DNA of 64,000 nt. It comes from Sedimentisphaerales bacterium. Its GTDB lineage: Bacteria; Planctomycetota; Phycisphaerae; Sedimentisphaerales; SM23-30. The stretch is taken from assembly GCA_963666285.1 (NCBI GenBank), contig OY762711.1, one strand, 5' to 3'. Both the position numbers and the translations under genes were made by a program. The notes beneath the pieces are model-generated. The model was not told the DNA's origin. It saw nothing but the letters and a program-made list of their open reading frames with translations, and did no database searches. Below are positions 3,866 to 60,701 of this stretch, in pieces. Every line of letters starts with the position of its first letter. The stretch's first letter is position 1.

Positions 3866-3900
3866 ATCATCTCCAATATTATCTCAGCCTAATATAAACC

Positions 3901-4680: not shown

Positions 4681-4683
4681 ATT

Positions 4684-6140: not shown

Positions 6141-6158
6141 AACCGGTTCTCCTTTTTA

Positions 6159-42361: not shown

Positions 42362-42430
42362 TTCCTTTGTAACTCTAATCTATCTATCTTTCTATCTCTC
42401 ATACATGCCCTATCAGGCACAAATACAATT

Positions 42431-42446
42431 AACAATCTGCGTGCCA
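42431..42446 (-). promoter_or_regulatory. Sigma54 -24/-12 promoter of the nifB unit
   Basis: TGGCACGCAGATTGTT (GG-N10-GT). Confidence 0.7.
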
Positions 42447-42575
42447 AAATAATGAAAATAGCTAATAATATATGCACATTCCAATAATTCGCCAATATAT
42501 CGAAGAAAACCAATATAACATTCCTTAATTATCAATATATTTCACAACTTCTAAACCAGGCAATACTAATATATT

Positions 42576-42593
42576 TAGGAAATAATCTTCACA
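42576..42593. promoter_or_regulatory. Candidate upstream activator site (nifB)
   Basis: TAGGAAATAATCTTCACA, close match to 60237-60254 upstream of nifH. Confidence 0.5.
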
Positions 42594-43006
42594 TAAATGT
42601 TGTCTGACAAAAATACTTCCAGAATAACCTTTACATAACTTATTTAGCTGAAACACCTTAGCTTTTAGATGAAATTAATTTCACTCGAACTCATACATTA
42701 ATACTCACATTGTACATTTCGGTCACAAAACCACTATCACTTCCCACGAACCAAAACATATTATCCAATAAAATAATTTACCTGGCTTTCATATTTAGTA
42801 AACAGGAAGCGTTTCTGGCTTATAAGGAGGAATGATTATTCAGGGCAAATTTCATATAATACAATTAGAAAGAAACAAACCTGGCTGTCTCGAAGGATAA
42901 AATACGAATAGTGAAATTGATTTGAATTTGTTCGAAAAATATGGATGATATATTATCCTAAGCCAACAATAAATAATATAAGTATTGGTTATAAAAGGAA
43001 TAATAT

Positions 43007-44536
43007 ATGAAGCACATATCTAGACGATCTATTCTCAAAACTGCGGCTGGTGCGGCAGCAGCTCTTTCGGCTTCTCCCCAAATAGCTACCAGCCTGGCAA
43101 AAATAACAGATGAAACTCCTGGCTGTTTTTTCGAAAAAGAATTTGGCATTTCTGATCAATTATGCCGGAAAGTACTTTCGGCCGCGTTGGCCAAAGGCGG
43201 AGATTATGCGGATATATTCTTTGAACATACAGTAAACAATTACCTGGTACTTGAAGATGGTAAGGTAAACAGATCCTCATGTGAGATATCTCTTGGCGTT
43301 GGAATAAGAACCATCTGTGGCGACCAGGTTGGCTACGGTTTCACACAGGAACTGAGCGAAAAGTCAATGTTGTCAGCAGCAACTACAGCCGCGTCAATCG
43401 CAGATTCCAGCCCAAATAAACCAGCTGGGAAATTTATCTCCATGGAAATAAGTGATTTTTATCCATTAAAAACACTCATGACAAATGTACCGCTTGAAGA
43501 TAAACTAAAAATTGTCCAGGAACTAAATACACAAATATTTCAAAGGTCTCCCCTCATTACAAAAGCCCAAATATCACTCAGCGAAAATCATAAACAGATT
43601 TTAATTATCAACAGCCTTGGGACAAAAACTTCTGACCAGCAGCCGCTTTCGCATTTATCTGCTTCAATTGTTGCTGAAAAAGATGGTAAACAGGAACAAG
43701 AACGCTATTACCTGGGCGGTAGATGCGGTTTTGAATATTACAACCAGGAAACTATCAATACTATTGCCGATGAAGCCGTAAAAAGAGTATTAACCCTGTT
43801 TGATGCTACCATTCCTCCTGCAGGTGAAATCCCGGTTGTTGTTGGTCCAGACTCCGGCGTACTTTTGCACGAAGCTATTGGCCACGGCATGGAAGCTGAC
43901 TTTAACCGTAAAGGAACTTCAACCTACGCAACCATGCTGAACCAGAAGGTCGCCCAGTCAGATGTTACCATCGTTGACGATGGGACAAACCTTAATCTCG
44001 CAGGATCAATAAATGTTGATGATGAAGGCACACCCGGACAATGTACGGTATTGGTAGAAAAAGGTATACTACGAGGATATCTGCATGACAGGATTTCAGC
44101 AAAGCATTATGGTGTATCACCAACCGGAAATGGTAGAAGAGAAAGCTTCGAGCATTATGTTGTACCGAGGATGAGAAATACTTATATGATGAGCGGCAGC
44201 GACAACGAAGAAGATATAATAAGAAGTGTAAAAAATGGAATTTATGTCAAATCTGTTAGCAATGGCCAGGTTAAAATAGGTGAAGGAGATTTTGCATTTT
44301 ATGTCTCCCAGGGTAATTTGATTGAAGATGGCAAACTTACAGCTCCAATTAAAGATGTAAACATCATGGGCAACGGTCCAAAAATGCTTAGAAATATTAC
44401 CAGGGTTGCAGATAACCTGGCTTTCTCACGCAGTGCTATCGGCAGATGCGGTAAAGACGGGCAAAGTGTTCCGGTTGGTTTTGGAATGCCTACCGTACTG
44501 GTAAAATCACTTACTGTCGGCGGCAGAAAATCATAG
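43007..44536 (+). CDS. tldD: TldD metalloprotease with twin-arginine signal peptide
   Basis: SRRSILK Tat motif; LLHEAIGHGME, PRMRNT, CGKDGQ. Confidence 0.92.
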   Translation: MKHISRRSILKTAAGAAAALSASPQIATSLAKITDETPGCFFEKEFGISDQLCRKVLSAALAKGGDYADIFFEHTVNNYLVLEDGKVNRSSCEISLGVGIRTICGDQVGYGFTQELSEKSMLSAATTAASIADSSPNKPAGKFISMEISDFYPLKTLMTNVPLEDKLKIVQELNTQIFQRSPLITKAQISLSENHKQILIINSLGTKTSDQQPLSHLSASIVAEKDGKQEQERYYLGGRCGFEYYNQETINTIADEAVKRVLTLFDATIPPAGEIPVVVGPDSGVLLHEAIGHGMEADFNRKGTSTYATMLNQKVAQSDVTIVDDGTNLNLAGSINVDDEGTPGQCTVLVEKGILRGYLHDRISAKHYGVSPTGNGRRESFEHYVVPRMRNTYMMSGSDNEEDIIRSVKNGIYVKSVSNGQVKIGEGDFAFYVSQGNLIEDGKLTAPIKDVNIMGNGPKMLRNITRVADNLAFSRSAIGRCGKDGQSVPVGFGMPTVLVKSLTVGGRKS

Positions 44537-44551
44537 AAGGGAGAATTACTC

Positions 44552-45874
44552 ATGAGCTGCAATAAATCAGAACTAGCACAAACAGCAATGAAAATCGCAC
44601 TCAAAGCCGGTGCGAACGAATGCCGGATAACTATCAGCAATACTCGTCTGGTAGAAATTAAATATCGCGAGATGAAACCTGAAAACATAAAAGAAGCGTC
44701 TAAAAATGAAATGACAATACTTCTATATGTTAACGGTAGATTTTCCTCTCAACGTACTTGCGATCTTCGAAATAATGCTTTGGAAACATTTATCACCAAC
44801 GCAGTTAAACAAACTGCTCTATTAGCTGAAGATCCTTTTCGGTCACTACCTGACCAGAAATTGTATAAGATCCCGAAAGAAATCGATTTAGAAAATATTG
44901 ATCCGAACTACAACAATCTTTCTACTGAGGCAAGACACAACATAGCCTATAAAATCGAAAATGAATGCCGAAAGATTGCTGGAGACAATCTCATCTCAGC
45001 AAATGCAGAAATTTCAGATTCATTTCAGGACACTTTAGTTTTAGCCAGCAACGGTTTCGAAGGACAAACGCAGTCAACGTCTTACTCTGTTGGGGCCAGC
45101 ATTGCCCTGCAGGATGAAGGTACACGTCGCCCTAATGGCTATTACTATGCCAACACAACCAGATACAAGGATTTGCCGCCAGTTGAATTCGTTGCAAAAG
45201 AAGCCGTAGAAAGAACTAAAAGACTTATTGGCGGTAAAAAAATCAAGACCCAGACTCTGCCGATAATCATAGAAAATCGACAGGTCCCTAGAATTTTATA
45301 TGGCTTATTAGCTGCAATGTATGGAAGAAATATCCAGCAGAAACAGTCATTCCTGGCAAACAAAAAGGGTCGGGTTATTGCCTCACCAAAACTGACTATA
45401 ATCGACGATCCATTCATCAAACGAGGACAAGGCAGTAGATTATTTGATTCTGAAGGAATTGCCTCCGGTAAAAGGGCAATAATTGAAAACGGAAGACTAA
45501 ATAACTTTTATATTGACTGGTATTATAGCAGAAAGCTTAACTGTACACCAACAACAGGGACCCCTTCCAACCTGGTAATAACTCCGGGAAATCGGTCGCT
45601 AACAGACATAATGAAAGACCTTGGCAAAGGCATACTGGTCACGGGATTTATCGGGGGAAATTCAAATTCAACCACAGGTGACATGTCTCTGGGCATTATC
45701 GGTGAAATGTTTGAAAATGGTGAAATAGTCCAACCTGTATCTGAAATGAATATAGCAGATAATCATCTGACATTCTGGAACAAACTCATCGAAACAGCAA
45801 ATGACAATTGGGAATACTCATCACGCCGAACTCCAAGCCTTGTATTTGATAACATTGTTGTAGCCGGCGTTTAG
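44552..45874 (+). CDS. tldE: TldE/PmbA family protein
   Basis: SFLANKKG, DDPF, FDSEG, NSTTGDMSLG, PVSEMNIA; no HExxH; follows tldD. Confidence 0.88.
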   Translation: MSCNKSELAQTAMKIALKAGANECRITISNTRLVEIKYREMKPENIKEASKNEMTILLYVNGRFSSQRTCDLRNNALETFITNAVKQTALLAEDPFRSLPDQKLYKIPKEIDLENIDPNYNNLSTEARHNIAYKIENECRKIAGDNLISANAEISDSFQDTLVLASNGFEGQTQSTSYSVGASIALQDEGTRRPNGYYYANTTRYKDLPPVEFVAKEAVERTKRLIGGKKIKTQTLPIIIENRQVPRILYGLLAAMYGRNIQQKQSFLANKKGRVIASPKLTIIDDPFIKRGQGSRLFDSEGIASGKRAIIENGRLNNFYIDWYYSRKLNCTPTTGTPSNLVITPGNRSLTDIMKDLGKGILVTGFIGGNSNSTTGDMSLGIIGEMFENGEIVQPVSEMNIADNHLTFWNKLIETANDNWEYSSRRTPSLVFDNIVVAGV

Positions 45875-45938
45875 CATATTGGCAGCTACTCTGTTACAAT
45901 TGTTAGAGATTTTATTATTTTATAGGTAAGCTTGCATA

Positions 45939-47312
45939 TTACATATAAGTATAGCCTACCTCTGAATTTGCCTGCTTAGCTTCTATCAAAGTATTGGTCA
46001 CCCGGTCAAACAGCGACTGGGTTCCTTCATACAATAAATGTTCGATCCTGGCTCCTCCAATACGATCATGAATTGGAAAACCTACCCTTACCAGCGGTAT
46101 ATTCAGTTTCCTGGATAGAGTATAGCCTTTACTGTTACCGATAATAAAATCAGGTTTTAATTCTTCGGCATATTCGTGAATATCAAGGAAGTCTGTCTTT
46201 TCGATAACCTTGACTTTACTCATAGCTTCACCGATAGATTCACTTAAAACTGACTCAAGGTTCGTCTTGGTAGCACCAGTTGCACATATAACCGGTACAA
46301 TACCTATTTCCAGCAGAAACTCAGCCATAGACAACACAAGTTCAGGCTGACCATAAACAATCGCTCGCTTACCGGAAACATATTTATGCGCATCTATATA
46401 ACTGTCAAGCAGCCTGCCTCGCTGATCATGATATTTCTGTGGCATTTTATTGCCGCTAACCTCTTCCAGGGTGCTAAAGAATTTATCACAATTTTTAATT
46501 CCAATCGGCATTGACATGCGATGTGCAGCAACGTCAAACCTGTCATGAAGCATTTTTGCAGCACTGAAATCATCACCAAATGTCTGACAGAATTCAATTG
46601 ATGCCGCCGCTGAACCAGTTTCAACTATTTCCTGGATTTTAGTTCCTCCTGGAGGAATTTTCGAGTATTTCTGCCAGGTCTGACCATCAAGTGTTTCAGA
46701 ATAGTCTGGCAAAATAGTTGGCTTTAAGCCAAAATCTTCCGCTGCGACACGAAGATTTCTTATATCAGCAGGTGACACCATACCAGGTATTATATTTATT
46801 CTGTTATATCCTATATCACCTGGGCGAGCCATCTGGTCAACCATCGCAACAATTGTCCCATAAAATCCCTCTGCCTCTGTTCCGGCATAGCTTGGAGTTG
46901 AAACATTAACAATCTGCGGTAACTCACAATCTGAATATGTCTTGCGAAACTCCTTCAAAAAACCATTCATATCATCACCGATAGTCTCTGCAAGACAAGT
47001 TGTAGCGACTCCGACAAATTTAGGCTGATATTGAACAATCACATTTTCCAGGGCAGTTCTAAAGTTTTCTCCACCACCAAATATTACCGCCTGTTCACTA
47101 AAATTCGATGATGCTATATCAATTGGCTCTTTATAATGACTTATCATATATCTGCGTATATACGTTGAACAACCCTGCGAACCATGTAGAAGAGTTATTG
47201 ACTTTTCTACTCCTGCAAACGCCATACAAGCTCCTAACGGCCTGCAGAGCTTACACGCATTTCTGGTCGCTGTAAATTGTTTCTTTTCTTTTGATTTCAT
47301 CTTCTGTACCAC
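45939..47312 (-). CDS. nifN: Nitrogenase FeMo-co scaffold NifN
   Basis: NACKLCRPLGA, HGSQGCSTY, TTCLAETIGDD, GFPIHDR; follows nifE. Confidence 0.92.
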   Translation of the reverse strand: MVQKMKSKEKKQFTATRNACKLCRPLGACMAFAGVEKSITLLHGSQGCSTYIRRYMISHYKEPIDIASSNFSEQAVIFGGGENFRTALENVIVQYQPKFVGVATTCLAETIGDDMNGFLKEFRKTYSDCELPQIVNVSTPSYAGTEAEGFYGTIVAMVDQMARPGDIGYNRINIIPGMVSPADIRNLRVAAEDFGLKPTILPDYSETLDGQTWQKYSKIPPGGTKIQEIVETGSAAASIEFCQTFGDDFSAAKMLHDRFDVAAHRMSMPIGIKNCDKFFSTLEEVSGNKMPQKYHDQRGRLLDSYIDAHKYVSGKRAIVYGQPELVLSMAEFLLEIGIVPVICATGATKTNLESVLSESIGEAMSKVKVIEKTDFLDIHEYAEELKPDFIIGNSKGYTLSRKLNIPLVRVGFPIHDRIGGARIEHLLYEGTQSLFDRVTNTLIEAKQANSEVGYTYM

Positions 47313-47364
47313 CCTGTTTTCCTATCAGTTATTTATCTACTTACTGATACTGCTTAATCCTACT

Positions 47365-48756
47365 CTATTGTCCAAAAGTTTTTGGAATTTGCCAGACCGG
47401 GCTCATCACACTACGATGAACCTCCCTGGCAAAATTTATCATCCCCTCATACCCGGCTAATGCTTCCTTCCTCTCATGATTATGGTCGCAAAAGCCAATA
47501 CCTAATTTATATGCGATGGGACGCTCTTTTACACCACCGATAAGCAGGTCAACGTTCTTTTCCTGAACGTATTTCGCCAGCTCTAATGGATTGGTGTCGT
47601 CAAGCAAGATCACATCGTCATCACAAAGTTCTGATAGCATGCGGTAATCCTCCTGGCTGCCGGTTTGTGAACCAGCCAGCACAGTCTTCACTCCCAACGT
47701 GCGTAAGGAACGTACGAGCGAGAATGCCTTAAACGCTCCGCCAGTGTAAATGGCTGCCCGCTTGCCATTCAGATCCTTCTTAAAACCTTTTAGCTCATCC
47801 ATAATCCTGGTAATCTCTGTACCGACAAGTTCCTGTGTACGAGCTAAAATCGTATCATCTAAATCCTTAAAATGTTCAGCTACATCATACAAAGCTCTAG
47901 ACATATCTTCGATACCAAAATAAGATACGTGAATAAACGGTATTCCATATTTCTCTTTCATCATTTTTGCCAGGAATACCATCGAGCCTGAACACTGCAC
48001 CACATTCAACGAAGCCGTATGTGCCTTGCGAATATCATCTACTCGCCCATCACCTGTCATTGTCGCAACGACATCTACTCCAATCTTCTTATAATAATCT
48101 TTTATCATCCAGGTTTCGCCGGCCAGGTTGAAATCTCCAAGTATATTTATACTGGCAGGAGATATATCAGCATCTCTTGTACCGATCAGTTTAAATAGAG
48201 CTTCACAGGCCGCCTTATAACCATTCTTTTTAGTCCCCTTAAAACCTTCAGAATGAACTGGTATTACTTCTATACCTTTTTCTCTACTAACTTTTTTACA
48301 AACAGCTTCTACATCATCACCTATCACACCAATGATACAGGTAGAATAAATAAATGCCGCTTTTGGTTTATATTCATCAATCAATTCACAAAGTACTTCA
48401 TACAGCTTAACTGCACCACCATATATAACATCGTTTTCCTGTAAATCCGTTGAAAAACTTAACCGATGAATCTGCGGACCTGACGAAAGAGCGCCCCGAA
48501 TATCCCAGGTGTATGCCGCACAGCCAATTGGACCGTGAACCAGATGCAAAGCATCGGCTACCGGGTACAAAACCACCCTGGATCCACAAAACACACAAGC
48601 TCGCTGGCTGACAGAACCTGCCAGCGACTGGGTTTCACATTTTATCTCAAAAGGCTTACCGGCATTTTCACTGGTCTTTTCATATATATGGCCTTCTCTG
48701 GTTTTTAATACTTCTATACTCACTGCTCTATTCTCTTTTGTACTGCTGGTTTTCAC
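47365..48756 (-). CDS. nifE: Nitrogenase FeMo-co scaffold NifE (alternative GTG start 48723)
   Basis: QRACVFCG, HGPIGC, STCI, VQCSGS, DHNHER. Confidence 0.95.
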   Translation of the reverse strand: MKTSSTKENRAVSIEVLKTREGHIYEKTSENAGKPFEIKCETQSLAGSVSQRACVFCGSRVVLYPVADALHLVHGPIGCAAYTWDIRGALSSGPQIHRLSFSTDLQENDVIYGGAVKLYEVLCELIDEYKPKAAFIYSTCIIGVIGDDVEAVCKKVSREKGIEVIPVHSEGFKGTKKNGYKAACEALFKLIGTRDADISPASINILGDFNLAGETWMIKDYYKKIGVDVVATMTGDGRVDDIRKAHTASLNVVQCSGSMVFLAKMMKEKYGIPFIHVSYFGIEDMSRALYDVAEHFKDLDDTILARTQELVGTEITRIMDELKGFKKDLNGKRAAIYTGGAFKAFSLVRSLRTLGVKTVLAGSQTGSQEDYRMLSELCDDDVILLDDTNPLELAKYVQEKNVDLLIGGVKERPIAYKLGIGFCDHNHERKEALAGYEGMINFAREVHRSVMSPVWQIPKTFGQ

Positions 48757-49008
48757 AGCTCTGCCGCAGGTTGCAGCTAAAACGACTAGCTGCTACCTGA
48801 CGGCTTATGCCGTAATGATTGCTGTAAGTGCTGCAAACCACGCTAACACTTATTTTAACCTACTTTTCACCTATTTATTGGAGATTATCTACATTTCTCA
48901 TATATTTGAGGTTATTACTCTCATATCTATTAGTTACAGACATCTGCCCTAATCCTGCTAATTTCAGTTTGACTACTTTTCTATTTTTACTGCACACGAT
49001 ATAACTAT

Positions 49009-49024
49009 TACAATCTGCATGCCA
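49009..49024 (-). promoter_or_regulatory. Sigma54 -24/-12 promoter of nifEN
   Basis: TGGCATGCAGATTGTA (GG-N10-GT). Confidence 0.7.
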
Positions 49025-49646
49025 AAATATCATTCAGACTCAATGACAGCATCATAATAATACTGACGCAAATAAGAGGTAACCCTGTAAACACAAATAA
49101 TAAAGCAACTTACATCAAAAATACAGCTCAAGACAACTCAACAGTTACCAATTAATAATTGTCATTTTTAAAATATTTTAACATGTCAAATGCTTATTAT
49201 TTACAAAATCTTAAATGACATTTATTTCACAATTACAGCATAACATAGAATTACATAGCTCTAGAACAAAATGTAAGTCATTATAGAAAAGCAACTTAAA
49301 CGATATTGGAAATTAATTTCCATTTTCAGACTGCAAAGATTGCAGCATTGTTTCATTTTTGTTACACACCCAAAATAAATCTCCGCATATTTCAATTTTT
49401 CGCTGCAAGTAATACATACGATTAATATTAACAAAAAATATTTACTTATTTAGCAGAGGAGGTATAATTACAAAAGTGAGTCAAACAAATGGTTAGCAGT
49501 TTTATATAATTTTTTCTTAATAATTAAGACATTTTTTCACGATAACTAACAAGTATACAAAAATTAACATTGACCTGTGGCACAAAAAACACCGCAATGT
49601 TATGGGACTATTTTGGGTAGAATACTACTTTTAGGGAAACTTCAAT

Positions 49647-50339
49647 ATGCCTTCTGACCAATATGGAAGCCAGTACGAGTGTATTGAAACACTCATATCT
49701 CTTTTCATTGACGGTGATCGAGATGAAGCCGGCAAACTTCTTCGGTCATGGGGCCAACAGCATAGCTACCATGATGCAATTAGCGATATACTGGAACCGG
49801 CAATATCAAAATTCGGTCACGACTGGGGCAGGACCGAAAGAGTCAGTCTTGGGCAGGGGTATGTACTGGGAAAAGTAGCCGAAGATATTTTCGAGCTTGC
49901 AGCAAGCGAATATTCTAAACAGATTGCACCTGCCGCTAAAGGACCTGTCATTATGGGCAATATCGAAGATGACAATCACGCATTAGGACGCAAACTGGTT
50001 ATAACCTTTCTTAAAATTAATGGCTGGAATGTAATCGATCTTGGTAATGACATTACTGCAGAAGAATTTATCGATACGGCAGTTAAACATAATGCTTCAA
50101 TCATCGGTGTTTCTGCAATGATACTTAGAACAGCAATGAATATAAAAGGCGTTCGCCAATTACTAATTAAGCGAGGACTATCTGACAAAATCAAGCTGGC
50201 AGTTGGCGGGGCCGTATTCTGCCAACGCCCGGAACTGGTTGATGAAGTAGGCGGAGATGGAACTGCAAATAATGCTATATTAGCACCTGGCCTGTTTGAC
50301 AACCTAATGCAAAAGACTCGTATTAAAGGAAGTGTTTGA
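49647..50339 (+). CDS. Corrinoid (B12)-binding protein, MtaC/MttC-like
   Basis: Cap domain plus DNHALG (DxHxxG), VIDLG, GVSAM, AVGGA. Confidence 0.9.
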   Translation: MPSDQYGSQYECIETLISLFIDGDRDEAGKLLRSWGQQHSYHDAISDILEPAISKFGHDWGRTERVSLGQGYVLGKVAEDIFELAASEYSKQIAPAAKGPVIMGNIEDDNHALGRKLVITFLKINGWNVIDLGNDITAEEFIDTAVKHNASIIGVSAMILRTAMNIKGVRQLLIKRGLSDKIKLAVGGAVFCQRPELVDEVGGDGTANNAILAPGLFDNLMQKTRIKGSV

Positions 50340-50340
50340 A

Positions 50341-51372
50341 ATGAACAGCTCAGAAAGAGTGATGGCAGCAATCCAGGGAAAACCAACATACAGGCGAGCA
50401 GTAGCCCTTACCCTGTCTCTTTATGGCGCCAAGCTAATCAACTGCCCGCTGAAAGAATATTACAATAACTATAAACTATACGCAGAAGGTCAACTTGCGA
50501 TACGAGAGACATTCCAACCAGATATACTACTTGCCCCCTTTGCGTTACCACTTCTAGGAGCTGCATTTGGCAGCAGGATAAAATATTTTGCCAATCACCC
50601 TCCCAACATCGCCAAGCCGGTTCTTTCCAACCCAAATGATATTTCTTCCTTAGGCATGCCTGATATAGATACTGACCCAATCCTGAAATACATCAGAGAA
50701 AGCCTTAGAGAAATGGTATCAAATGCCGATGGTGAATACCCCGTTTCAGCTGTAGCTTTAAGTCCGGTTGATTTTCCAATTATGATATTAGGAATAGAAG
50801 CTTGGTTAGATACCGTTTTATTTAATCATGATCTTACAAAAAGAATTCTGGAAATTTCAACAAAATTCTTCCTTGACTGGACTAGCGCATTATTTAATGA
50901 TGGCGCTACATGTATTATATTACCGGCACCGTTTGCCAACCTGAGAATTGTCACCAGGAAATTTTTAACCAAAACAGCAATCCCAAACCTCAAGGAATCT
51001 TTTGCCCAATGCCTAGGCCCACTCATCCTCCATCACTGCGGCACATCATATCATGATACTTTGCCATATATAACAGACATGCCAAATACCATTGGATACT
51101 GCATAGGAAAAGAAGACAATCTAGCAGAATCAAGAAATGCCATAGGTAGCAACACACTATTACTTGGCAATATAGATGGCCCAAGCCTTTATAAGCGTGA
51201 TCCTGAGCATATATATAAACAGACATGCGAAATAATTGAAGACAGAAAAGAAGACCCTCACTTTATCCTGGCTACATCTGCTGCAGATATTGAACTTGAA
51301 ACACCAGAAGAAAATATTCAGGCAATCATTCAGGCAGCAAAGGAAACACATTTAGAAAAGGCTGGCATGTAA
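50341..51372 (+). CDS. Uroporphyrinogen decarboxylase/MtaA-family methyltransferase-like protein
   Basis: MNSSERV, AAFGS, ILHHCG, LLGNID, ETPEENI; ATG two bases after the upstream stop. Confidence 0.85.
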   Translation: MNSSERVMAAIQGKPTYRRAVALTLSLYGAKLINCPLKEYYNNYKLYAEGQLAIRETFQPDILLAPFALPLLGAAFGSRIKYFANHPPNIAKPVLSNPNDISSLGMPDIDTDPILKYIRESLREMVSNADGEYPVSAVALSPVDFPIMILGIEAWLDTVLFNHDLTKRILEISTKFFLDWTSALFNDGATCIILPAPFANLRIVTRKFLTKTAIPNLKESFAQCLGPLILHHCGTSYHDTLPYITDMPNTIGYCIGKEDNLAESRNAIGSNTLLLGNIDGPSLYKRDPEHIYKQTCEIIEDRKEDPHFILATSAADIELETPEENIQAIIQAAKETHLEKAGM

Positions 51373-51373
51373 C

Positions 51374-51973
51374 ATGCTAATCAAAGAACTCAATAATAAT
51401 ACAGTATGCCTGGCATGTTCAATATTTAAGGCTGAACTGAAAAATATATTTTCCAGCAACAATATTGATATGCCCATCAAATATTTCGACTCAATGCTGC
51501 ACATGGACCCGGAAAAACTCCAAAAAAAATTAGACAAAATAATAGAAACTGAACAAAAAACAGGAAATAAAATCTTACTAATTTGCGGCGAATGCCATAA
51601 CCATATGGACGGTTATGACGATAATACAAAAATCAGCAGAACAACCGGTAAAAACTGCATTGAATTATTCCTGGGCACAAAACTATACAAAGAACTTGAA
51701 GATAATGGCGCGTTCTTTTTCTTGTACGAATGGGCAAAAAGATGGCGGGAAACATTTGAAAACCACCTTGGCCTGAAAGGTAAAAATGCAAAAGAATTTA
51801 TGAAAGAACTACACAAATACCTTTTATATATTGATACCGGCACCCATCCGGTACCCGTAGAAACCATGAATGAAGCTTCTAAATATCTTGGTTTACCATG
51901 GAAAACGTTAAAAATAAACACAAATCAGATATCAAATTCGATACTAGCGGCATTGAATGCACTAAAACTATGA
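51374..51973 (+). CDS. DUF1638-like protein
   Basis: LACSIFKAEL, SMLHMDPEKL, ICGEC, NCIELFLG, FFLYEW, YIDTG pattern. Confidence 0.75.
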   Translation: MLIKELNNNTVCLACSIFKAELKNIFSSNNIDMPIKYFDSMLHMDPEKLQKKLDKIIETEQKTGNKILLICGECHNHMDGYDDNTKISRTTGKNCIELFLGTKLYKELEDNGAFFFLYEWAKRWRETFENHLGLKGKNAKEFMKELHKYLLYIDTGTHPVPVETMNEASKYLGLPWKTLKINTNQISNSILAALNALKL

Positions 51974-53553
51974 TAAATGAAATCGAACAATACAATACCC
52001 AACTAGCAAACACCAATATGGTCTTGGATATTGTGGAACAGATTCTGGCTGTCGCAAGCGACCTGAATGCTACCGGTGAACATTTAACACAGTCGCTTCG
52101 CGGGCTAACCGGAGCCTATGCCATTTTACTCACTATAATGTCAACTAAGAAACCAGACTCTTATAAAATACTGGCATTTAACCCTGAAAGAAGAAAATAC
52201 CTGGCAGAAACAGACATTGTTAAAGAACTCATCAAGCAATCTAAAAAACTCAGCAAAATCAAGTATTTCACCCTTTCAAACAATTCTCTCCGTAAAGGAC
52301 ACGACGTAGAAAAAAATAATACCATGATCGAAAATGCTGTAGTGGCACCTTTAATAAACAAGAACCATCATATTGGAAATCTTATCCTGCTCGGACTACC
52401 AAACAACGAGGCAGGCTCGACAAGATCACTAAAAGCAATTACTCTTCTTTCCAACATACTGGCTATAGTAATGAGAACAGCACTACTCTATAACAAGCAG
52501 GACAAACTTATAATCCAACTTGAAAAAGAAGTTAAGGAACGTATTCACGCCGAAGATGAACTCAAAAACGCAACAAGCCAGCTTATCCAAACCGAAAAAC
52601 TGGTATCAATCGGGCAACTGGCTGCCGGAGTAGCCCATGAAGTTAACAGTCCTCTCGGGGCGATCAAATCATCAAATGAATCCATCAATATCAACTTCTT
52701 GGATTTTTTTAAATTGATCCAAAAACAAAGCCACACCATGGTAAGGTTCAAAACTCTTACCGACAGGATCATTAAAACTATCAATACCGGCACACATGCA
52801 TATTCTTCAAGAGAAATCAGGCAGCAAAAATCGGAAATGCTGCACAATCTGGAAAAACATAATATTAAAAACGCTTACGAAATCGCCAACCTGCTGACCA
52901 ACGCCGGCATATACAATGATTACGCGGAATATATCCCCCTATTCGACAAGAACGACAACTCGGAAGACATTGTATTTCTTCAAAAGTTTTCTACCATACT
53001 GCAAAGCAGCAATATTATCGACATGGCAGTAAAACAATCAACAAAAGTAGTTAACGCCTTAAAAAACTTTGCACGCACCGGCGAAAACTCAGAACTAACT
53101 AAAATAAACATTAAAGATACAATTGAAACAGCTCTTACTTTGTACCGCAATGTATTAAAACATGGGATCGAACTGAAACTCAACTTTGAGGACGTGCCGA
53201 CCATTTACGGATATCCCGATAAACTTTGCCAGGTATGGACAAACCTGATACAAAATGCAGCATATGCAATGGGTAATAACGGGAAACTGGAAATCACATT
53301 ACGGCAAGTCAAAAACCTGATTCAGATTATCTTTACTGACTCAGGTACAGGAATACCGGCAGATATTATAGATAGAATTTTCGAACCGCTATTCACCACT
53401 AAGCAGCTTGGCGAAGGAACCGGACTGGGATTAGATATAGTTAAGCAGATCATCCAAGACCATAACGGATGCATTAGTGTAGAAAGTGAACCTGGCAAAG
53501 GAGCTACTTTTATAATAGAGCTGCCTCTCAACAACCAGTTAAAAACAGTTTAA
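51970..53553 (+). CDS. Cytoplasmic GAF-like + HisKA + HATPase sensor histidine kinase
   Basis: ATGA overlap with the DUF1638 stop; EKLVSIGQLAAGVAHEVNSP, QVWTNLIQNA, DSGTG, FTTK, GTGLGL; no TM. Confidence 0.9.
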   Translation: MINEIEQYNTQLANTNMVLDIVEQILAVASDLNATGEHLTQSLRGLTGAYAILLTIMSTKKPDSYKILAFNPERRKYLAETDIVKELIKQSKKLSKIKYFTLSNNSLRKGHDVEKNNTMIENAVVAPLINKNHHIGNLILLGLPNNEAGSTRSLKAITLLSNILAIVMRTALLYNKQDKLIIQLEKEVKERIHAEDELKNATSQLIQTEKLVSIGQLAAGVAHEVNSPLGAIKSSNESININFLDFFKLIQKQSHTMVRFKTLTDRIIKTINTGTHAYSSREIRQQKSEMLHNLEKHNIKNAYEIANLLTNAGIYNDYAEYIPLFDKNDNSEDIVFLQKFSTILQSSNIIDMAVKQSTKVVNALKNFARTGENSELTKINIKDTIETALTLYRNVLKHGIELKLNFEDVPTIYGYPDKLCQVWTNLIQNAAYAMGNNGKLEITLRQVKNLIQIIFTDSGTGIPADIIDRIFEPLFTTKQLGEGTGLGLDIVKQIIQDHNGCISVESEPGKGATFIIELPLNNQLKTV

Positions 53554-53576
53554 ATTACATAACTGTAAAACTTACT

Positions 53577-54659
53577 TTGAATATTATGAATATAAAAAAT
53601 AAATTATTGCACCCGTCTCTCTATCTATTGTTTTACATTTGTATTTCTGCAATCACCGGATGTTCGATCGGGATAAACACCCCTGACGACCCTAATGCTT
53701 TCTATAAGAGTCAAAAGCTTTATGATTTCTCAAGCCAAAATCCCAGAATCAGTTTCACAAAAATATCAGAAACAGGTTTGACATTTACGATAAACAATGA
53801 CATTGAAATATTGTCGAAAGAAAACATTTCCACCTTGAGCTATAATAATCTCTACTATGACACACTTAATATGATTGCTGTAAACAATCAGGAATATAAT
53901 GATAATAAATATAAATTTCTAATTGATACAGGTTTTAACTACCTGGCAATGACAAATTCAATAACAGTCGAAGAAAACGGTCTCTCTATTTTACCTGCCG
54001 GACCAATAATGGGAAACGACATTTATGGAGGATATTGTTTTTTACCAGACTTTAATTTCGGGTTTACCAGTATTGACTGGATGCCATGCATTTTTATTCA
54101 ACAACACTGGGAATTTAACCTGTTGGGAATTCCAATATGGCAGCAGAAAGGATTCTTACTTGGCAACCAGTTTTTAAGCAAGTACAGCTACCTCTATTTT
54201 GATAATCCTGCCAGAAAACTGACATTTTCTGCAAACCAGGTTTTCACTCCATCATCAGAATTAAATTGGGTCAAATACCCTCTTTACCTGGCAAAAGACC
54301 GGCATCTATTTATTACAATTCCAATTGCATCAAAGAATTTGGATGTAATGTTTGACACATGCGGCAGCCACGGTATTGTTCTGGAGCATGATAAATGGCA
54401 GCAGATAAAGTCAAATATTGAAATAATAAATGAGAAAGACAGTACATTCATTTCTGGTTTTTACGGGAAATTATCCTGTAATAAAATCAAAGTCAAAGAA
54501 TTACAAATAGCAGATAAAGCTATCTCAAGGCCGGAAATTATCGTCCAGGGCAACAATGACCAGGAAACCCTGCAAAGCTACATTAGTATGAAGTATTTTC
54601 GCAACGACCATATAGTTCTAGACTACAAAAACCAACTCATATGGGTTGGGCATAAATAA
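53577..54659 (+). CDS. Two-domain retropepsin-like aspartyl protease lipoprotein
   Basis: Lipobox ITGC; FLIDTG and VMFDTCG; GFLLGNQFL. Confidence 0.7.
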   Translation: MNIMNIKNKLLHPSLYLLFYICISAITGCSIGINTPDDPNAFYKSQKLYDFSSQNPRISFTKISETGLTFTINNDIEILSKENISTLSYNNLYYDTLNMIAVNNQEYNDNKYKFLIDTGFNYLAMTNSITVEENGLSILPAGPIMGNDIYGGYCFLPDFNFGFTSIDWMPCIFIQQHWEFNLLGIPIWQQKGFLLGNQFLSKYSYLYFDNPARKLTFSANQVFTPSSELNWVKYPLYLAKDRHLFITIPIASKNLDVMFDTCGSHGIVLEHDKWQQIKSNIEIINEKDSTFISGFYGKLSCNKIKVKELQIADKAISRPEIIVQGNNDQETLQSYISMKYFRNDHIVLDYKNQLIWVGHK

Positions 54660-54708
54660 AAAAACCTTTAGCCGGGAGCAGCCGGATGGCCGCTCCCAGG
54701 ATAAAGGA
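54658..54708 (-). terminator. Terminator between convergent nifK and protease genes
   Basis: cctttagccgggagc...gctcccaggataaagg hairpin with an A7 flank. Confidence 0.65.
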
Positions 54709-54761
54709 CGGGGGGTATTCAAAATTATATCAGTACTTTGTCCCAGTACTTAGGAATTGGA

Positions 54762-56144
54762 TTATAACACCAATTCGAATTCAGTTTCATCTGAATCACG
54801 ATCTTTACGATCAAGAATCAGATTTAACATCTTCTCCAATAATCTCATCGCACCATCATAGCCCACAGTTGGGAAGTGAGAGTGACCAACACGGTCAAAA
54901 ATCGGGAAGCCATGACGCAGTAAAGGAATATCTTCATCACGAGAGATATACTTACCATATGTATTACCTATTAACAGGTCAACCGGCTCATTTTTTATCC
55001 ACTGGTGCATCAGGTACATATCAGCACAGGCACCCTGCTTGTATTTGGCTTCTGGAACCTGACCTTGCAGAGAAGCTTCCATACGCTTCAGGAACTGCTT
55101 GCCAGGAGTTCCGGTTACCATATAAACAGGTTTCATATCAAGGTCAACTAAAAACTCTGCCAGTGATACCAGCTGATCAGGATCGCCCCAGAGAGCAACC
55201 TTCTTACCATAGAAATACTGATGCGAATCAGTAATCATATCAACCAGTTTGGCACGCTGCGTAGTAATTTCTTCAGGCACTTCAACCTTGGCAACTTTAC
55301 GCAGGGTATCGATAAACCTGTCAGTAGCCTTCAAACCAATTGGCAACTCAAGTGACCAGAAAGGTACTTTTGCCTTTGTTTCCAAATCCTTAGCCGCAGG
55401 CATTGAAGCAGTTGGACCAAGAGCAATAGTAGCCTGACTGCGACCCATATATTTCAGATCGCTCACCTTGGTTCCGCCTTTGGGATACATTTCCATCTTG
55501 CCGGTCTGGCCACCATTTAGAACACCATCAGTATCAGGGAACATCAGGGTTTCCACTCCCATAGCCTTGCAGATCTTTTTGATCTCGGCCATATCACTTG
55601 GCTCAACCCAGCCCGGAAGAATATTTACCGTGCGAAGCTTATTTTCACTTGGCTCGGCAAAAGCCCGCACGATACCTTTACACATATTGGCAAAGCCGGT
55701 TACATGCGAACCCACATAACTTGGTGTCTGACAGTAGATAACCTCTTTACCTTCAGGAATAAAACCTTTTTCACGAGCCTTGTCAATAATCTGAGGCATA
55801 TCGTCACCAATTGTCTCAGAAAGACATGTGGTATGAATCGCAATCACCTCTGGATCATATATGGTAAATATATTATTGATAGCCTGCAACAGATTAGCCT
55901 GACCGCCAAAAACTGAAGCACCTTCAGTAAATGAGCTCGTACCGGCCATAACAGGCTCTTTATAGTGACGTGTCAGGGCACTTCTATGATATGCACAGCA
56001 ACCCTGTGAACCGTGACTGTGAGGAAGACAACCGTGTATTCCCAAAGCCGCATACATAGCACCAATCGGCTGACATGTCTTGGCCGGGTTAATAGTAACC
56101 GCTGTCCTTTCTTTCACCTCACTTGTAGTATGTCTAAGTAACAT
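54762..56144 (-). CDS. nifK: Nitrogenase MoFe protein beta chain
   Basis: NPAKTCQPIGA, SHGSQGCC, TTCLSETIGDD, GFPIFDR. Confidence 0.97.
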   Translation of the reverse strand: MLLRHTTSEVKERTAVTINPAKTCQPIGAMYAALGIHGCLPHSHGSQGCCAYHRSALTRHYKEPVMAGTSSFTEGASVFGGQANLLQAINNIFTIYDPEVIAIHTTCLSETIGDDMPQIIDKAREKGFIPEGKEVIYCQTPSYVGSHVTGFANMCKGIVRAFAEPSENKLRTVNILPGWVEPSDMAEIKKICKAMGVETLMFPDTDGVLNGGQTGKMEMYPKGGTKVSDLKYMGRSQATIALGPTASMPAAKDLETKAKVPFWSLELPIGLKATDRFIDTLRKVAKVEVPEEITTQRAKLVDMITDSHQYFYGKKVALWGDPDQLVSLAEFLVDLDMKPVYMVTGTPGKQFLKRMEASLQGQVPEAKYKQGACADMYLMHQWIKNEPVDLLIGNTYGKYISRDEDIPLLRHGFPIFDRVGHSHFPTVGYDGAMRLLEKMLNLILDRKDRDSDETEFELVL

Positions 56145-56242
56145 TTTATTCTCCTGTATTTATTCAAGCCGCATCGGCATGAAAGTACCTGGTACAACAT
56201 AAAACCCGGTACCAATATTATCTATTATCTATCTTCTATATC

Positions 56243-57868
56243 TTAGCCTATCAGTTTCGCATCCAGCATGGGTTCTGATTTTACCTGCCACGGTGCGGTA
56301 GTATATTCCCAGATCTTGGCATTGACCATTCTGTCAACTGTTCTGTAGAAATTGATTGCACCTTTGAAGCTCGCAAATGGTCCGCCGTAGTCATAACTAT
56401 GAAGCTGTAAGCAAGGTGTTCCGGTCTTCTGGATAACATACTTTTCCTTGATACCGGCACAGAAAATATCAGGCTTATACATCTCGATCAGTTTTTCTGA
56501 CTCGTAGTGACTGATATCGTCAATGATAAGAGTATCATTTTCCATCTCAGGCATCATACCTTCATAATCGTTAAACTCGAATCCTTTCTTCTGAAAAGCT
56601 TCCATTTCCTTTTCACTTTTTCTTGGATTGTATAGCTCTGGATCCGGCCCAACTTCCAGCTCTTCGATGTTACGACTGTCTGCATCAACCTTGATGTCAG
56701 GCAGAACCTTTCTGCCTTCGTAGTCATCACGATGAGCAAACTCATAACCGGCTGCAAGTGTCTTCATACCGATCTCGGCAAATAGTTCCTGGTAGTGATG
56801 AGCACGGCTTCCGCCAACAAACAGCACAGCGGTTTTACCTTCACAACGTGCCTTAACCTCTTCCTGAACCTTTTTAACCTCAGCCATTTCTGCTTCTATT
56901 ACTTCTTTGGTCTTGGCAATCAAATCCTTATCTTCAAAGAATTCTGCTATCTTGAGCAAACTTTTAGCCGTTGCTCCTGCACCAATAAAGTTCACCTTAA
57001 ACCATGGAATACCGTATTTTTTCTCCATCATATCAGCTACATAGTTGATCGAACGATGGCACATTACCGTATTCAAATCTGCAGTATGAGCATTTTCAAA
57101 TCCTGCGATAGAAGAATTACCACTGAATGTAGAATGCATTCTCAGTCCGCACTTTTCAAACAGGTCATCGATCAGGAATGCATCACCACCGATATTGTAT
57201 TCACCCAGCAGATTAACCTTAAACGGATGCTCATTTACGGTATCATCACGTCCGATTACATGCTTAAACAACTGGTTGTTTGCAATGTGGTGACCGGCTG
57301 ACTGGCTCACACCTTTATAACCTTCACAACTAAAACCGAAGATATTAATACCAAGCTCTTCACGCATCTCTTTGGCAACGGCATGGACATCGTCACCAAT
57401 CAAACCAACCGGACAGGTTGAGAAAATACCAATCGCCTTTGGTTTGACCAGTTCGTATATCTCTTTTATCGCAGTTTTCAGTTTTTTCTCACCACCAAAG
57501 ATAACTTCCTCATCCTGCATATCTGTTGAGAAACAATAGTTCATAAAGTTCTCGCCGTCTTTGCCCGGATCTGTCTGATTACGCCTGGTAAGCCAGGAGT
57601 AAAAACCGCAACCAATCGGACCATGTGTCAGGTTCACGATATCTCTGGTCGGACCCAGTACCACACCTTTACATCCGGCATAAGTACAGCCACGCTGTGT
57701 TATGATACCGGGAGTTGTTCGAACGTTAGCGTTTATCGCCGGTACCTGATCTTTTTCCTGAACCTTGTTTACCACGATCTGGCTGGCACGCTTGCGGGCA
57801 ACCTTCGCCGGGTAAATTTTGGTCATTTCATCTTTTGCCTCTATAGGATCTATTCTGTTCTCAGGCAT
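56243..57868 (-). CDS. nifD: Nitrogenase MoFe protein alpha chain (Clostridium-type with internal insertion)
   Basis: RGCTYAGC, HGPIGC, STCP, GVSQSAGHH, MCHRS, GGSRAHH, QLHSYDY. Confidence 0.97.
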   Translation of the reverse strand: MPENRIDPIEAKDEMTKIYPAKVARKRASQIVVNKVQEKDQVPAINANVRTTPGIITQRGCTYAGCKGVVLGPTRDIVNLTHGPIGCGFYSWLTRRNQTDPGKDGENFMNYCFSTDMQDEEVIFGGEKKLKTAIKEIYELVKPKAIGIFSTCPVGLIGDDVHAVAKEMREELGINIFGFSCEGYKGVSQSAGHHIANNQLFKHVIGRDDTVNEHPFKVNLLGEYNIGGDAFLIDDLFEKCGLRMHSTFSGNSSIAGFENAHTADLNTVMCHRSINYVADMMEKKYGIPWFKVNFIGAGATAKSLLKIAEFFEDKDLIAKTKEVIEAEMAEVKKVQEEVKARCEGKTAVLFVGGSRAHHYQELFAEIGMKTLAAGYEFAHRDDYEGRKVLPDIKVDADSRNIEELEVGPDPELYNPRKSEKEMEAFQKKGFEFNDYEGMMPEMENDTLIIDDISHYESEKLIEMYKPDIFCAGIKEKYVIQKTGTPCLQLHSYDYGGPFASFKGAINFYRTVDRMVNAKIWEYTTAPWQVKSEPMLDAKLIG

Positions 57869-57979
57869 ATTACACCTCTTATATACATTGTTTTAATTCT
57901 CTTGCTACTTTGTATACTGCTGAAATATGCCGTACTCTTTTAACATATTTTTTAACAGCAGCAGACACTACACTACCAA

Positions 57980-58372
57980 TTATTCACTATCGGCATAATC
58001 ACCAAGAGCTTCTTCACCTGTTTCACCTGTCCTGACACGGATTGTTTCTGATATTGGCAGAACAAAGATTTTTCCATCACCAGGTGAACCGGTTTGGTTT
58101 ACAGAGATCAATGTTTCTACTATTTCATCTACTTTCTCATCTCTTGTCACTATCTGGACCATTCGCTTAGGTATCAATTTTGGCCCTGGACTTAACTGAT
58201 TTATAGCTTCTTCGTAACCTTCCTCAGCACCTTTAAGCAACAGGTAATCTACTTTGCCTTTGCCGCGGCCTATTACCTTTCGAGCCGTCATAGATGCAAC
58301 ACCAAGCTCGCTTAAAGCCTTTTTTGTTGCATTCATTTTATTCATTCGAATTACTGCTAATATTTCTTTCAT
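57980..58372 (-). CDS. nifI2: PII-family nitrogenase regulator NifI2
   Basis: MKEILAVIRMNK, GRGKG, GDGKIFV; between nifH and nifD; AAGGAG RBS before ATG 58372. Confidence 0.9.
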   Translation of the reverse strand: MKEILAVIRMNKMNATKKALSELGVASMTARKVIGRGKGKVDYLLLKGAEEGYEEAINQLSPGPKLIPKRMVQIVTRDEKVDEIVETLISVNQTGSPGDGKIFVLPISETIRVRTGETGEEALGDYADSE

Positions 58373-58455
58373 CGCAGATTCTCCTTGTGTTACTGCGTTG
58401 TTTTTTAGTTTAGCTGTGAACAACTAACTAGCTGCCACTTTTTGTCTGTTTTTTT

Positions 58456-58782
58456 TTACAGACCCTTAACACCGGAACTTACTGTATAAGCTGCATCTAC
58501 AGGAGAGATAAATATTTTACCATCTCCAAATGCACCTTTTGATCCGGAACGAGCGGCTTTCATAATAGTATCAACAACAAGGTCTTTATCTGAATCTTCG
58601 ACTACAGTAAAGATCATTTCTTTTGGCAGTTCATCGTATGTAATTTCACCGATTTTCATACCACGCTGCTTACCTCTTCCGAACACATCCATTTTTGTTA
58701 CAGATGGAAATCCGGCATACATCAAAGCTGCTAGTACTTCATCAGTTTTTTCCGGGCGAATAATAGCTCTTACCATTAACAT
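58456..58782 (-). CDS. nifI1: PII-family nitrogenase regulator NifI1
   Basis: RAIIRPEK, GRGKQRG, YDELPK, GAFGDGKIF. Confidence 0.92.
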   Translation of the reverse strand: MLMVRAIIRPEKTDEVLAALMYAGFPSVTKMDVFGRGKQRGMKIGEITYDELPKEMIFTVVEDSDKDLVVDTIMKAARSGSKGAFGDGKIFISPVDAAYTVSSGVKGL

Positions 58783-58977
58783 TATATTGATTTCCTTTCC
58801 TAAGGATATTTGCATCCATTTTGGTATACTTATTTAATTTATATTATACTATTTCAAGTAATATTTGGTTTAAGGTCTTCTGCCGGCAATAAGCAGCAAC
58901 ATGAAAAACAATCAAAATCAAATTCATCACCATATATTTATGTCGCCGCTCATTGACTTGTAATATTTGGCTTACAT

Positions 58978-59826
<849 letters not shown>

Positions 59827-59945
59827 TCACTAAAGGTTGTTAACTTCGTTGCTTCTACTTTCTGACTAATACAACTTTCTAAACTCTCTAAGCTATCGGC
59901 CCCCGTTTAGGCGGAAGTTTCAGCTTTAATTACGGAAGAGATAAA

Positions 59946-59961
59946 TACAAGCGGCGTGCCA
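59946..59961 (-). promoter_or_regulatory. Sigma54 -24/-12 promoter of the nifH operon
   Basis: TGGCACGCCGCTTGTA (GG-N10-GT). Confidence 0.75.
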
Positions 59962-60236
59962 GAAAAATTTATGTGCCGGAAAATATTTTTCATACAAAAC
60001 CCCACATATGCATTCGACCGCTAAAAAAATGTTAAGCAGGGTAATTTACAGTCGGGAATATTAAAGCCGGCAAGAGCTAAAACGCGATTATTATTAAAAT
60101 AATAAGGTAAATAAGAAAATAGATTTTTCTATATAAAATTCAAGCCAACCACCAAATTTAAATGCTATAATTATTCGGATAGCCAGGAAAACTCTCTTCC
60201 GGGCATATACAAACTCTAAAGTGCGCGCATGCTGTT

Positions 60237-60343
60237 TAGGAAATTTATTTCACATAATTCCTAATCCACTACATAAGCATTGCCAACCTACAATCTATAA
60301 AACCATAATTACTAGTTAAACAGTGTGTGAAAAAATTTTCACA
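60237..60343. promoter_or_regulatory. Candidate upstream activator sites (nifH)
   Basis: TAGGAAATTTATTTCACA (60237-60254) and palindrome TGTGAAAAAATTTTCACA (60326-60343). Confidence 0.5.
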
Positions 60344-60416
60344 TCACCCAATGGTATTTCCCGGGATTATTACCAAAAGTTTCACATATTCAAATACGCC
60401 AGTATGGAATTTTCTT

Positions 60417-60582
60417 ACTTTTGCTGATAGCGGATTGGGATTTTGAGGATGTATGGAGAATTGGCGAAGGTCAGACTTACCCGTATTTGAGGAAGTATAT
60501 TGCAGCGGATATAAATGAAGATAAGGCTGTAGATTTACTGGACTTACAGAAGGTAGCGGCGAACTGGCTGAATAGCTACTAA
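60417..60582 (+). pseudogene. Frameshifted C-terminal remnant of a GLUG/dockerin-like surface protein
   Basis: TFADSG(+1 T at about 60435)WDFEDVWRIGEGQTYPYLRKYIAADINEDKAVDLLDLQKVAANWLNSY*; no 5' part. Confidence 0.7.
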
Positions 60583-60621
60583 CGATTTTAGCAAGTATCC
60601 ATAAAAATCTTCTATTGATAT

Positions 60622-60657
60622 ACCCTGGTTTAGAGATGATCTATGCCGGGGTTTTTT
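60622..60657 (+). terminator. Intrinsic terminator after the remnant
   Basis: ccctggt...gccgggg followed by a T-tract. Confidence 0.5.
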
Positions 60658-60701
60658 ATTGTTCCGGCTAGTCAGCCTGCCATTAAAGAGCTTTATAATA
60701 A

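Follow-up and report, generated by a model that had tools for sequence, protein, structure and literature searches.

Why should genes that resemble parts of a corrinoid-dependent methyltransferase be coupled to a histidine kinase gene in the middle of a nitrogen fixation (nif) cluster? The question is raised by a 64,000-nucleotide stretch of contig OY762711.1 (Sedimentisphaerales bacterium, GenBank assembly GCA_963666285.1), hereafter called the window. The initial annotation, made from the sequence alone, reported four coupled genes lying between nifK and nifE on the opposite strand, and the open reading frames (ORFs) and their junctions (1 bp, 1 bp and an ATGA overlap, read directly off the sequence) are as it described them. 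Pfam searches of all four proteins, which that annotation had proposed as a check, identified the following components:

49647-50339, + strand: corrinoid (B12)-binding protein, 230 amino acids (aa); B12-binding PF02310, E 8e-18
50341-51372, + strand: MtaA/UroD-fold protein, 343 aa; URO-D PF01208, E 1e-45
51374-51973, + strand: DUF1638 protein, 199 aa; PF07796, E 8e-30
51970-53553, + strand: soluble GAF histidine kinase, 527 aa; HisKA/HATPase_c

Longer starts are offered by the ORF listing for genes 2 and 4; almost all of the 117 homologues share Met1 of the MtaA-like protein at 50341, which supports that start, and the 527-aa kinase is the form present in the protein collection. From the comparisons described below we consider it probable that the four genes form a conserved, portable cassette in which the first three proteins would provide sensory input to the GAF domain of the fourth, the signal being the state of a protein-bound corrinoid. 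That the cassette is a signalling input of some kind appears very likely from its genomic features.

Loci were retrieved with a central subset of 25 of the 117 MtaA-like homologues, the full set being too diverse to scan, so that the collection leans towards the core of the family; a scan with a single protein as query retrieved nothing. This gave 159 loci (79 from genomes and 80 from metagenomes, some of them near-duplicates), in which each partner was counted only where the flanking sequence was sufficient. Among the genome loci, the corrinoid gene lies upstream in 75 of 77 and the DUF1638 gene downstream in 71 of 77, a GAF gene is present in 72 of 74, and all four genes are found in 66 of 72. 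The corresponding figures for the metagenome loci are 66/66, 60/61, 50/50 and 44/45. The order corrinoid-UroD-DUF1638-histidine kinase, for which a neighbourhood survey had been suggested, is therefore conserved. Thirty further loci (the best 30 of 47 matches, 3 of them already in the first collection) agree, with corrinoid and DUF1638 genes in 30/30 each and GAF in 28/30. In 95 loci the stop codon of the corrinoid gene and the start codon of the following gene lie in a 4-bp overlap. In locus L026 (6018-9023), a corrinoid gene and two tandem UroD-like genes are followed by beta-oxidation genes, and DUF1638 and the GAF output are missing.

According to record titles, and with phylum placements that are in part our own presumption, the carriers belong to Desulfobacterota, Chloroflexota, Planctomycetota, Bacteroidota, Pseudomonadota, Nitrospirota, Verrucomicrobiota, Spirochaetota, Myxococcota, Synergistota and several candidate phyla; the titles also include Methanospirillum and Methanoperedenaceae. 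The distribution is patchy. In some groups the cassette is frequent (44 of 401 genomes sampled from one deltaproteobacterial class), 400 genomes sampled from the phylum of the window yielded four distant relatives only, and the GAF profile matched none of 150 other genomes of its class. The homologue searches were insensitive, the DUF1638 query giving 2 matches and the GAF profile 14. The GC content at third codon positions of the cassette genes (0.34-0.41) is the same as that of neighbouring genes, and there is thus no sign of very recent transfer.

The product of the fourth gene has a GAF domain at residues ~15-200, N-terminal of a coiled coil, the H-box histidine (His223) and an HATPase_c domain (415-521) with N, G1, F and G2 boxes, which is the layout of a GAF-input kinase, and no clear membrane helix was found (best 19-residue hydropathy 1.7). 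The N-terminus has no Pfam match and folds as a GAF domain (predicted local distance difference test (pLDDT) score of the model 90.5; Foldseek E 2e-7). This GAF domain is peculiar to the cassette: with a cassette-GAF profile, the median score of members is 201 bits, against 29 bits for the highest-scoring ORF outside the cassette in the loci, and no other ORF of the window's own genome exceeds 13 bits. In the reverse direction, with 8 candidates scored per genome, a search of 401 genomes with the profile gave six full-length matches, four of them new, and all six have UroD-like and DUF1638 sequence upstream (one of the six DUF1638 genes is broken), whereas partners accompany none of the 11 partial matches.

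What follows the GAF domain varies. The 103 complete output ORFs comprise 94 kinases, 2 GGDEF proteins, 1 SpoIIE protein, 1 sigma-54 activator, 3 PAS-only proteins and 2 that are GAF-only or split. The kinases fall into at least two classes, HisKA and HisKA_2. Hybrid kinases account for 66 of 93 outputs; among the 27 that are not hybrids, a receiver gene is found no more than 1.5 kb away in 13. The window kinase is non-hybrid. Across 58 dereplicated loci, GAF identity tracks that of the corrinoid, UroD-like and DUF1638 proteins (rho = 0.59, 0.60 and 0.56), whereas the HATPase domain on the same chain does not track the GAF domain (rho = 0.02). More generally, pairwise identities among GAF, corrinoid, MtaA-like and DUF1638 sequences correlate at 0.49-0.60, against 0.02-0.11 for HATPase with any of these. 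The core of the window kinase is 45-49% identical to seven paralogues in its own genome and ~35% identical to other cassette kinases, except for 49% with that of locus L035. As the GAF domain follows its partners and the kinase core does not, the four-part head has stayed constant while the outputs behind it were exchanged.

Gene fusions join the same parts: UroD-like with DUF1638 (P0096 and ten representatives), corrinoid with UroD-like (P0156), DUF1638 with GAF and output (L041, L100 and L122) and, in a distant subfamily where the GAF assignment is weak, UroD-like with a GAF-like region and kinase in one chain (P0237). The initial proposal that parts of a methyltransferase now provide input to a soluble GAF kinase thus finds strong support in synteny and independent support in output swapping, co-variation and fusions; the link to nif that accompanied it does not (see below). 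In a sister subfamily (L002, L004 and P0237; ~26% identity, distal motif often HGE), a DUF1638 or UroD-like domain is fused to a divergent GAF-like region and kinase. The archaeal copies in L036 (540-4126) and L067 (2158-5944) end in GAF-PAS proteins without a catalytic output domain.

What could the first three proteins detect? The corrinoid protein has an MtaC/MtbC-like cap and Rossmann domain and carries the DxHxxG, SxM/L and GG motifs of that type. Its DxHxxG motif is intact (D109, H111 and G114); in the alignment D109 is kept in 126/126 sequences and H111 in 125/126, and G114, S156, G187 and G188 are invariant. The cap domain PF02607 is found in some family members. The protein scores under the curated cut-off of TIGR02370 (91 vs 215 bits), its nearest solved chains are 1y80, 7xcn and 3ezx, and it is predicted to bind a cobamide through His111.

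The MtaA-like proteins form a distinct family (128 matches, with 35-75% identity among the matches listed). The best PDB match is MtaA 4ay7 (E 4e-22, full length), which establishes homology to the URO-D/MtaA fold, and the scores are below cut-off for TIGR01463 (97 vs 235 bits) and for the MtaA/MtbA models (72 vs 400 and 68 vs 600). In MtaA and CmuA enzymes, zinc is bound by a His-x-Cys motif and a distal Cys. The window protein was initially said to keep His-x-Cys (ILHHCG) and to have lost the third ligand (ILATSAAD). Both motifs can be seen in the protein, opposite VLHICG and LAPGCG of 4ay7 in the alignment, and the distal Cys is indeed absent, but the description does not extend to the His-x-Cys cysteine of the family: His231 is kept in 116/117 homologues and Asp316 in 117/117, whereas Cys occurs at position 233 in only 4/117, the window copy among them, and at columns 313-315 in at most 3/117 each. 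The family as a whole therefore lacks the zinc site of MtaA and CmuA. Nearly invariant instead are S26, Y28, Y41, Y47, Q51, W155, H231, R265 and D316, of which the aromatic residues would line a predicted pocket. Uroporphyrinogen decarboxylase (HemE) of haem synthesis uses a catalytic Tyr, a His and the aspartate of an FSD motif. It was considered and rejected as an identity for this protein, since UroD chains match only at E 1e-8 or worse, the Tyr of YMV and the His of GHG align to non-identical residues, and the family has P66-F67 in the aspartate region.

The third protein is a clear DUF1638 member (104 bits vs a Pfam gathering score of 27; all Atlas feature matches are DUF1638). Four residues are invariant in the alignment, C15 (119/119), H43, C74 and C95 (120/120 each), and are predicted to form a metal (Cys3His) site. 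The same four residues are found in a second DUF1638 protein elsewhere in the genome, 25% identical to the cassette copy, and the site is therefore a family trait. Although the predicted model is good (pLDDT 95), no convincing fold match was obtained (best E 0.003 with Foldseek; best Z 8.1 with VIA, to generic alpha/beta folds), which does not in itself show a new fold. The initial annotation regarded DUF1638 as having no assigned function. This has to be revised, as the available text of Price et al. (10.1101/192971) reports that DUF1638 mutants are rescued by methionine and that the gene is co-distributed with that of a RamA-like protein, and gives genetic evidence for a role in B12 reactivation. 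In the cassette DUF1638 is likely to be an accessory reset factor. Such a role fits four loci (L019, L027, L113 and L062, two of them near-identical) in which DUF1638 is absent and the corrinoid, UroD-like and GAF genes are retained.

If the cassette were catabolic, a substrate-specific methyltransferase, an acceptor transferase or an activator would be expected with it. As initially stated, no MtaB, MttB, RamA or receiver gene adjoins it among the ORFs and Pfam matches of the window. No RamA, pterin-binding or homocysteine methyltransferase homologue was found in the 159 loci when single proteins from the window's own genome were used as queries; in 61 of these loci the flanks extend over 5 kb or more upstream and 6 kb or more downstream. 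MtaB and MttB, searched for genome-wide only, have no match in the same genome, which is 97% complete. A RamA-type gene and a second corrinoid gene are, like the second DUF1638 gene, found elsewhere in it; together with pterin-binding and homocysteine transferase genes they are scattered and look like a split methionine synthase. In a survey of 50 of the 79 carrier genomes, many of them incomplete, RamA was matched in 33, CobS in 30, clear nifD in 19, CdhD in 18 and MttB in 15. This distribution is explained by no single metabolism, and as far as tested the cassette appears not to be a catabolic operon.

How, then, might the head work? Within the signalling input, methyl-loading is favoured, with about half of the weight, over pure redox or cobamide-supply sensing. 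The MtaA-fold partner, devoid of the thiol-activating cysteines, would take up some small compound carrying a methyl or alkyl group and pass the methyl on to Co(I); alternatively, it might simply dock on one cobalt state. Given that there is no dedicated acceptor enzyme, methyl-Co(III), Co(II) and Co(I) could serve as the states of a switch. Contact between the corrinoid/MtaA-like pair and the dedicated GAF domain would then tune the output by way of the coiled coil, and DUF1638 with a RamA-type activator acting in trans would reset oxidised Co(II). The presence of RamA in trans in the window's own genome and in the 33 carriers is offered in support of the reset step. More tentatively, the cassette may represent a new class of chemical sensor, found in more than ten bacterial phyla and some archaea, in which the methyl or alkyl group of a ligand is written onto protein-bound cobalt, read by a GAF domain that fits onto outputs of any kind (kinase, cyclic di-GMP cyclase, phosphatase or sigma-54 activator) and reset by DUF1638; we would put this a little short of an even chance.

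Several points weigh against the sensory-input reading. All the support for it is genomic. Genes inherited together as an operon would also be expected to co-vary, and co-variation therefore demonstrates a unit rather than physical contact. Two loci (L026 and L078) keep the UroD-like gene without the cassette and two others (L200 and L201) lack the GAF domain. Conserved H231 and D316 may make a different catalytic metal site, distant methyltransferases could have escaped the single-protein queries, and RamA was not matched in 17 of the 50 carriers (many of which, as said, are incomplete). Lastly, the model leaves the ligand and the discharge of the methylated state unexplained.

Other readings account for part of the same evidence. 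The cassette could sense redox state or oxygen, the signal being the Co(I)/Co(II) couple itself, which is highly sensitive to oxygen; the baseline would then be set by DUF1638 and RamA, with no more than a scaffolding part for the MtaA-fold protein. This would suit the carriers, which we take to be mostly anaerobes or facultative organisms, as well as the disappearance of both zinc cysteines and, as far as the available genetic account goes, the tie of DUF1638 to reactivation of oxidised B12. However, the near-invariant polar and aromatic residues of the MtaA-fold protein exceed what a passive scaffold would seem to need, and we regard redox sensing as rather unlikely. Very unlikely in our estimate is a sensor of cobamide supply, in which the apo or holo state of the corrinoid protein, or the type of cobamide, would set the output. 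It would make sense of the window's own genome, which has 13 B12-binding-domain matches and no CobS match, and of the 20 of 50 carriers without a CobS match, but not of the 30 with one; it leaves the near-constant MtaA-fold partner unexplained, and Rfam searches of window positions 42000-62000 and of eight loci gave no match, cobalamin riboswitch included. It seems quite unlikely that the cassette is a small methyltransferase system of the mec or cmu kind, serving catabolism or detoxification and merely accompanied by its own regulator kinase. The model for such a system would be the mec cassette of anaerobic dichloromethane degraders (10.1101/2021.08.30.458270), where a histidine kinase and a corrinoid protein are likewise found with MtaA-family transferases and with a DUF/RamA activator pair that has been compared to the proteins of Price et al. 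By that description, mec is catabolic and comprises ten genes, among them those for an MtrH-type acceptor transferase, a RamA-type activator, a regulator and a PocR sensor, whereas the present cassette has four genes, none of the acceptor transferase, RamA or PocR partners, a dedicated GAF domain and swappable outputs. A distant corrinoid and UroD-like pair in L003 (3-3288) is followed by a CLC chloride/fluoride channel gene, recalling halomethane clusters, and would also fit a catabolic role. GSU2386 and GSU2387 of Geobacter sulfurreducens are presumably cassette members. One proteomics paper, in its available part, treats this corrinoid/methyltransferase pair as possible components of the acetyl-CoA pathway, the two proteins being undetected in its proteomes. 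Against catabolism stand the absence of acceptor transferase and RamA from the loci in the single-protein searches, outputs (GGDEF and SpoIIE) that go beyond transcription regulators, a cassette-specific GAF domain with swapped kinase cores, and the lost zinc cysteines.

A B12 photoreceptor of CarH or photocobilin type, signalling light to the kinase, is highly improbable. The cap has a Trp (W60, in 112/130) where CarH has one; the CarH cap motif, as we take it to be, combines this Trp with a Glu-His pair. The cassette cap reads W-x-SLAQGY, Gln-Gly-Tyr standing in place of a conserved Glu-His pair, and with the CarH model the protein reaches 22.7 bits, where the cut-off is 400; on these grounds a CarH-type photoreceptor was rejected. 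The closest solved chains are corrinoid proteins of methyltransferases (E 1e-28 to 1e-22), compared with 1e-12 for 8j2w-8j2y. In predicted light sensors (PMC8717448), B12-binding domains are known to partner kinases, GGDEF and SpoIIE domains, and the use of such a domain as input to these outputs would be common to the cassette and to B12 photoreceptors (CarH and photoglobin/photocobilin systems). The cassette differs from the photoreceptors in having neither the Glu-His pair nor a globin domain and in having an MtaA-fold partner and DUF1638.

There remains the position of the cassette, which led to the initial suggestion that it may signal to nif or che regulators. As regards chemotaxis, matches to methyl-accepting chemotaxis protein (MCP) domains occur in 5 ORFs of 164 loci. 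A regulator dedicated to nitrogen fixation might be expected inside the nif cluster and divergent from nifE, one TGT-N10-ACA sequence occurs at 49576, and clear nifD was matched in the 19 carriers mentioned. However, nifH, D, K, E, N and B have no match in the 159 loci. In a relative (G530) with an orthologous nif cluster, whose nif proteins are 68-96% identical, the nifK-nifE gap is occupied, on the strand opposite to nif, by a glycoside hydrolase 2 gene, and the cassette lies at least 0.7 Mb from nifD. As conserved linkage to nif genes was not found, a nif-specific regulator was rejected and is in our view scarcely credible. The features concerned are:

54762-56144, - strand: nifK, flanking the cassette
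47365-48756, - strand: nifE, flanking the cassette
49010-49024, - strand: sigma-54-type motif before nifE, pointing away from the cassette (pattern match)
59947-59961, - strand: sigma-54-type motif before nifH (pattern match)
42432-42446, - strand: sigma-54-type motif before nifB (pattern match)
53577-54659, + strand: lipoprotein-like gene, 360 aa, outside the cassette (weak aspartyl-protease match, below cut-off)

The three sigma-54-type motifs are similar, end in TTGT and represent three of the nine chromosome-wide matches to a stricter pattern, which was drawn after the sites had been seen; a looser sigma-54 pattern occurs about as often as expected by chance (54 vs 48.7), and counts of sigma-70 promoters and terminators equal those of shuffled sequences. 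Such motifs also precede nifH and nifE in G530, and none was found ahead of the cassette. The presence of another gene in the G530 gap and the separate nif motifs indicate that the gap is a tolerated insertion point between transcription units. The nif position of the cassette is probably incidental, an insertion at a transcription-unit boundary.

Returning to the cassette as a corrinoid-based sensory input, it lacks the defining features of each of the closest known systems. With the MtaC/MtaA (MtbC/MtbA) proteins of methanogens, which belong to a three-protein methyltransferase scheme as outlined in the available part of PMC6855144, it shares a DxHxxG corrinoid protein and an MtaA-fold partner, and these give the best NCBIfam and PDB matches. 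It differs from them in scoring far under the cut-offs, in the family-wide absence of the zinc cysteines, in loci without RamA or adjoining MtaB/MttB and in its coupling to a signalling domain. The split methionine synthase of Phaeobacter inhibens, with its RamA-like and DUF1638 reactivation proteins (10.1101/192971; PMC12478193), also has a stand-alone corrinoid protein and DUF1638, whereas the cassette DUF1638 is a separate paralogue that goes with a kinase, and its surroundings contain neither a homocysteine nor a pterin-binding module. MsmS, RdmS and MA4377 of Methanosarcina acetivorans (10.1101/2021.03.04.434021) are likewise sensor kinases near corrinoid-methyltransferase genes, but in the part of that paper available they control expression of the catabolic Mts proteins; corrinoid proteins are thus their targets, whereas in the cassette the corrinoid protein is the predicted input.

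A description of the cassette was not found in the literature searched, in which subscription journals are thinly covered. Its part families are known; what is new is their arrangement and predicted job. On the genomic comparisons the cassette appears to be real, widespread and apparently undescribed, and the mechanism plausible. To our knowledge, the B12-based protein sensors described so far respond to light only. If the reading is correct, conversion of corrinoid chemistry into phosphorylation or cyclic di-GMP signals would be a new class of input in prokaryotic signalling, and might be the means by which anaerobes perceive methylated compounds, halocarbons or exposure to oxygen. The cassette also gives DUF1638 a second, testable setting. 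A genetically tractable and harmless model probably exists, since the cassette is complete in a genome (G998) that encodes a protein identical to AAR35759.1 of G. sulfurreducens.

Some further features of the window were recorded. The lipoprotein-like gene shares the nifK-nifE gap with the cassette, 23 bp after the kinase gene, and has no homologue in its own genome or the 164 loci searched. A NifA-like gene (33107-34681; 518 bits vs a cut-off of 529) is located downstream of the nif cluster, and the NifL model matches only the core of the cassette kinase (85 vs 242 bits). Genes for a TldD protein with a twin-arginine translocation (TAT) signal and for PmbA (43007-45874, + strand) separate nifN from nifB on the opposite strand and are absent from the nif cluster of G530 (L190). 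Directly downstream of the nif cluster is a chemotaxis block (15061-37232, - strand) with cheA, cheW, cheR, cheB, a receiver gene and five MCP-domain genes. Another block (506-8216, - strand) encodes an 1119-aa PP2C-type phosphatase, three FHA-domain proteins and a 685-aa protein without a Pfam match. In genome G000, contigs C2-C4 (65,573, 65,644 and 66,550 bases), which accompany a 6.15 Mb chromosome, are possibly versions of one element.

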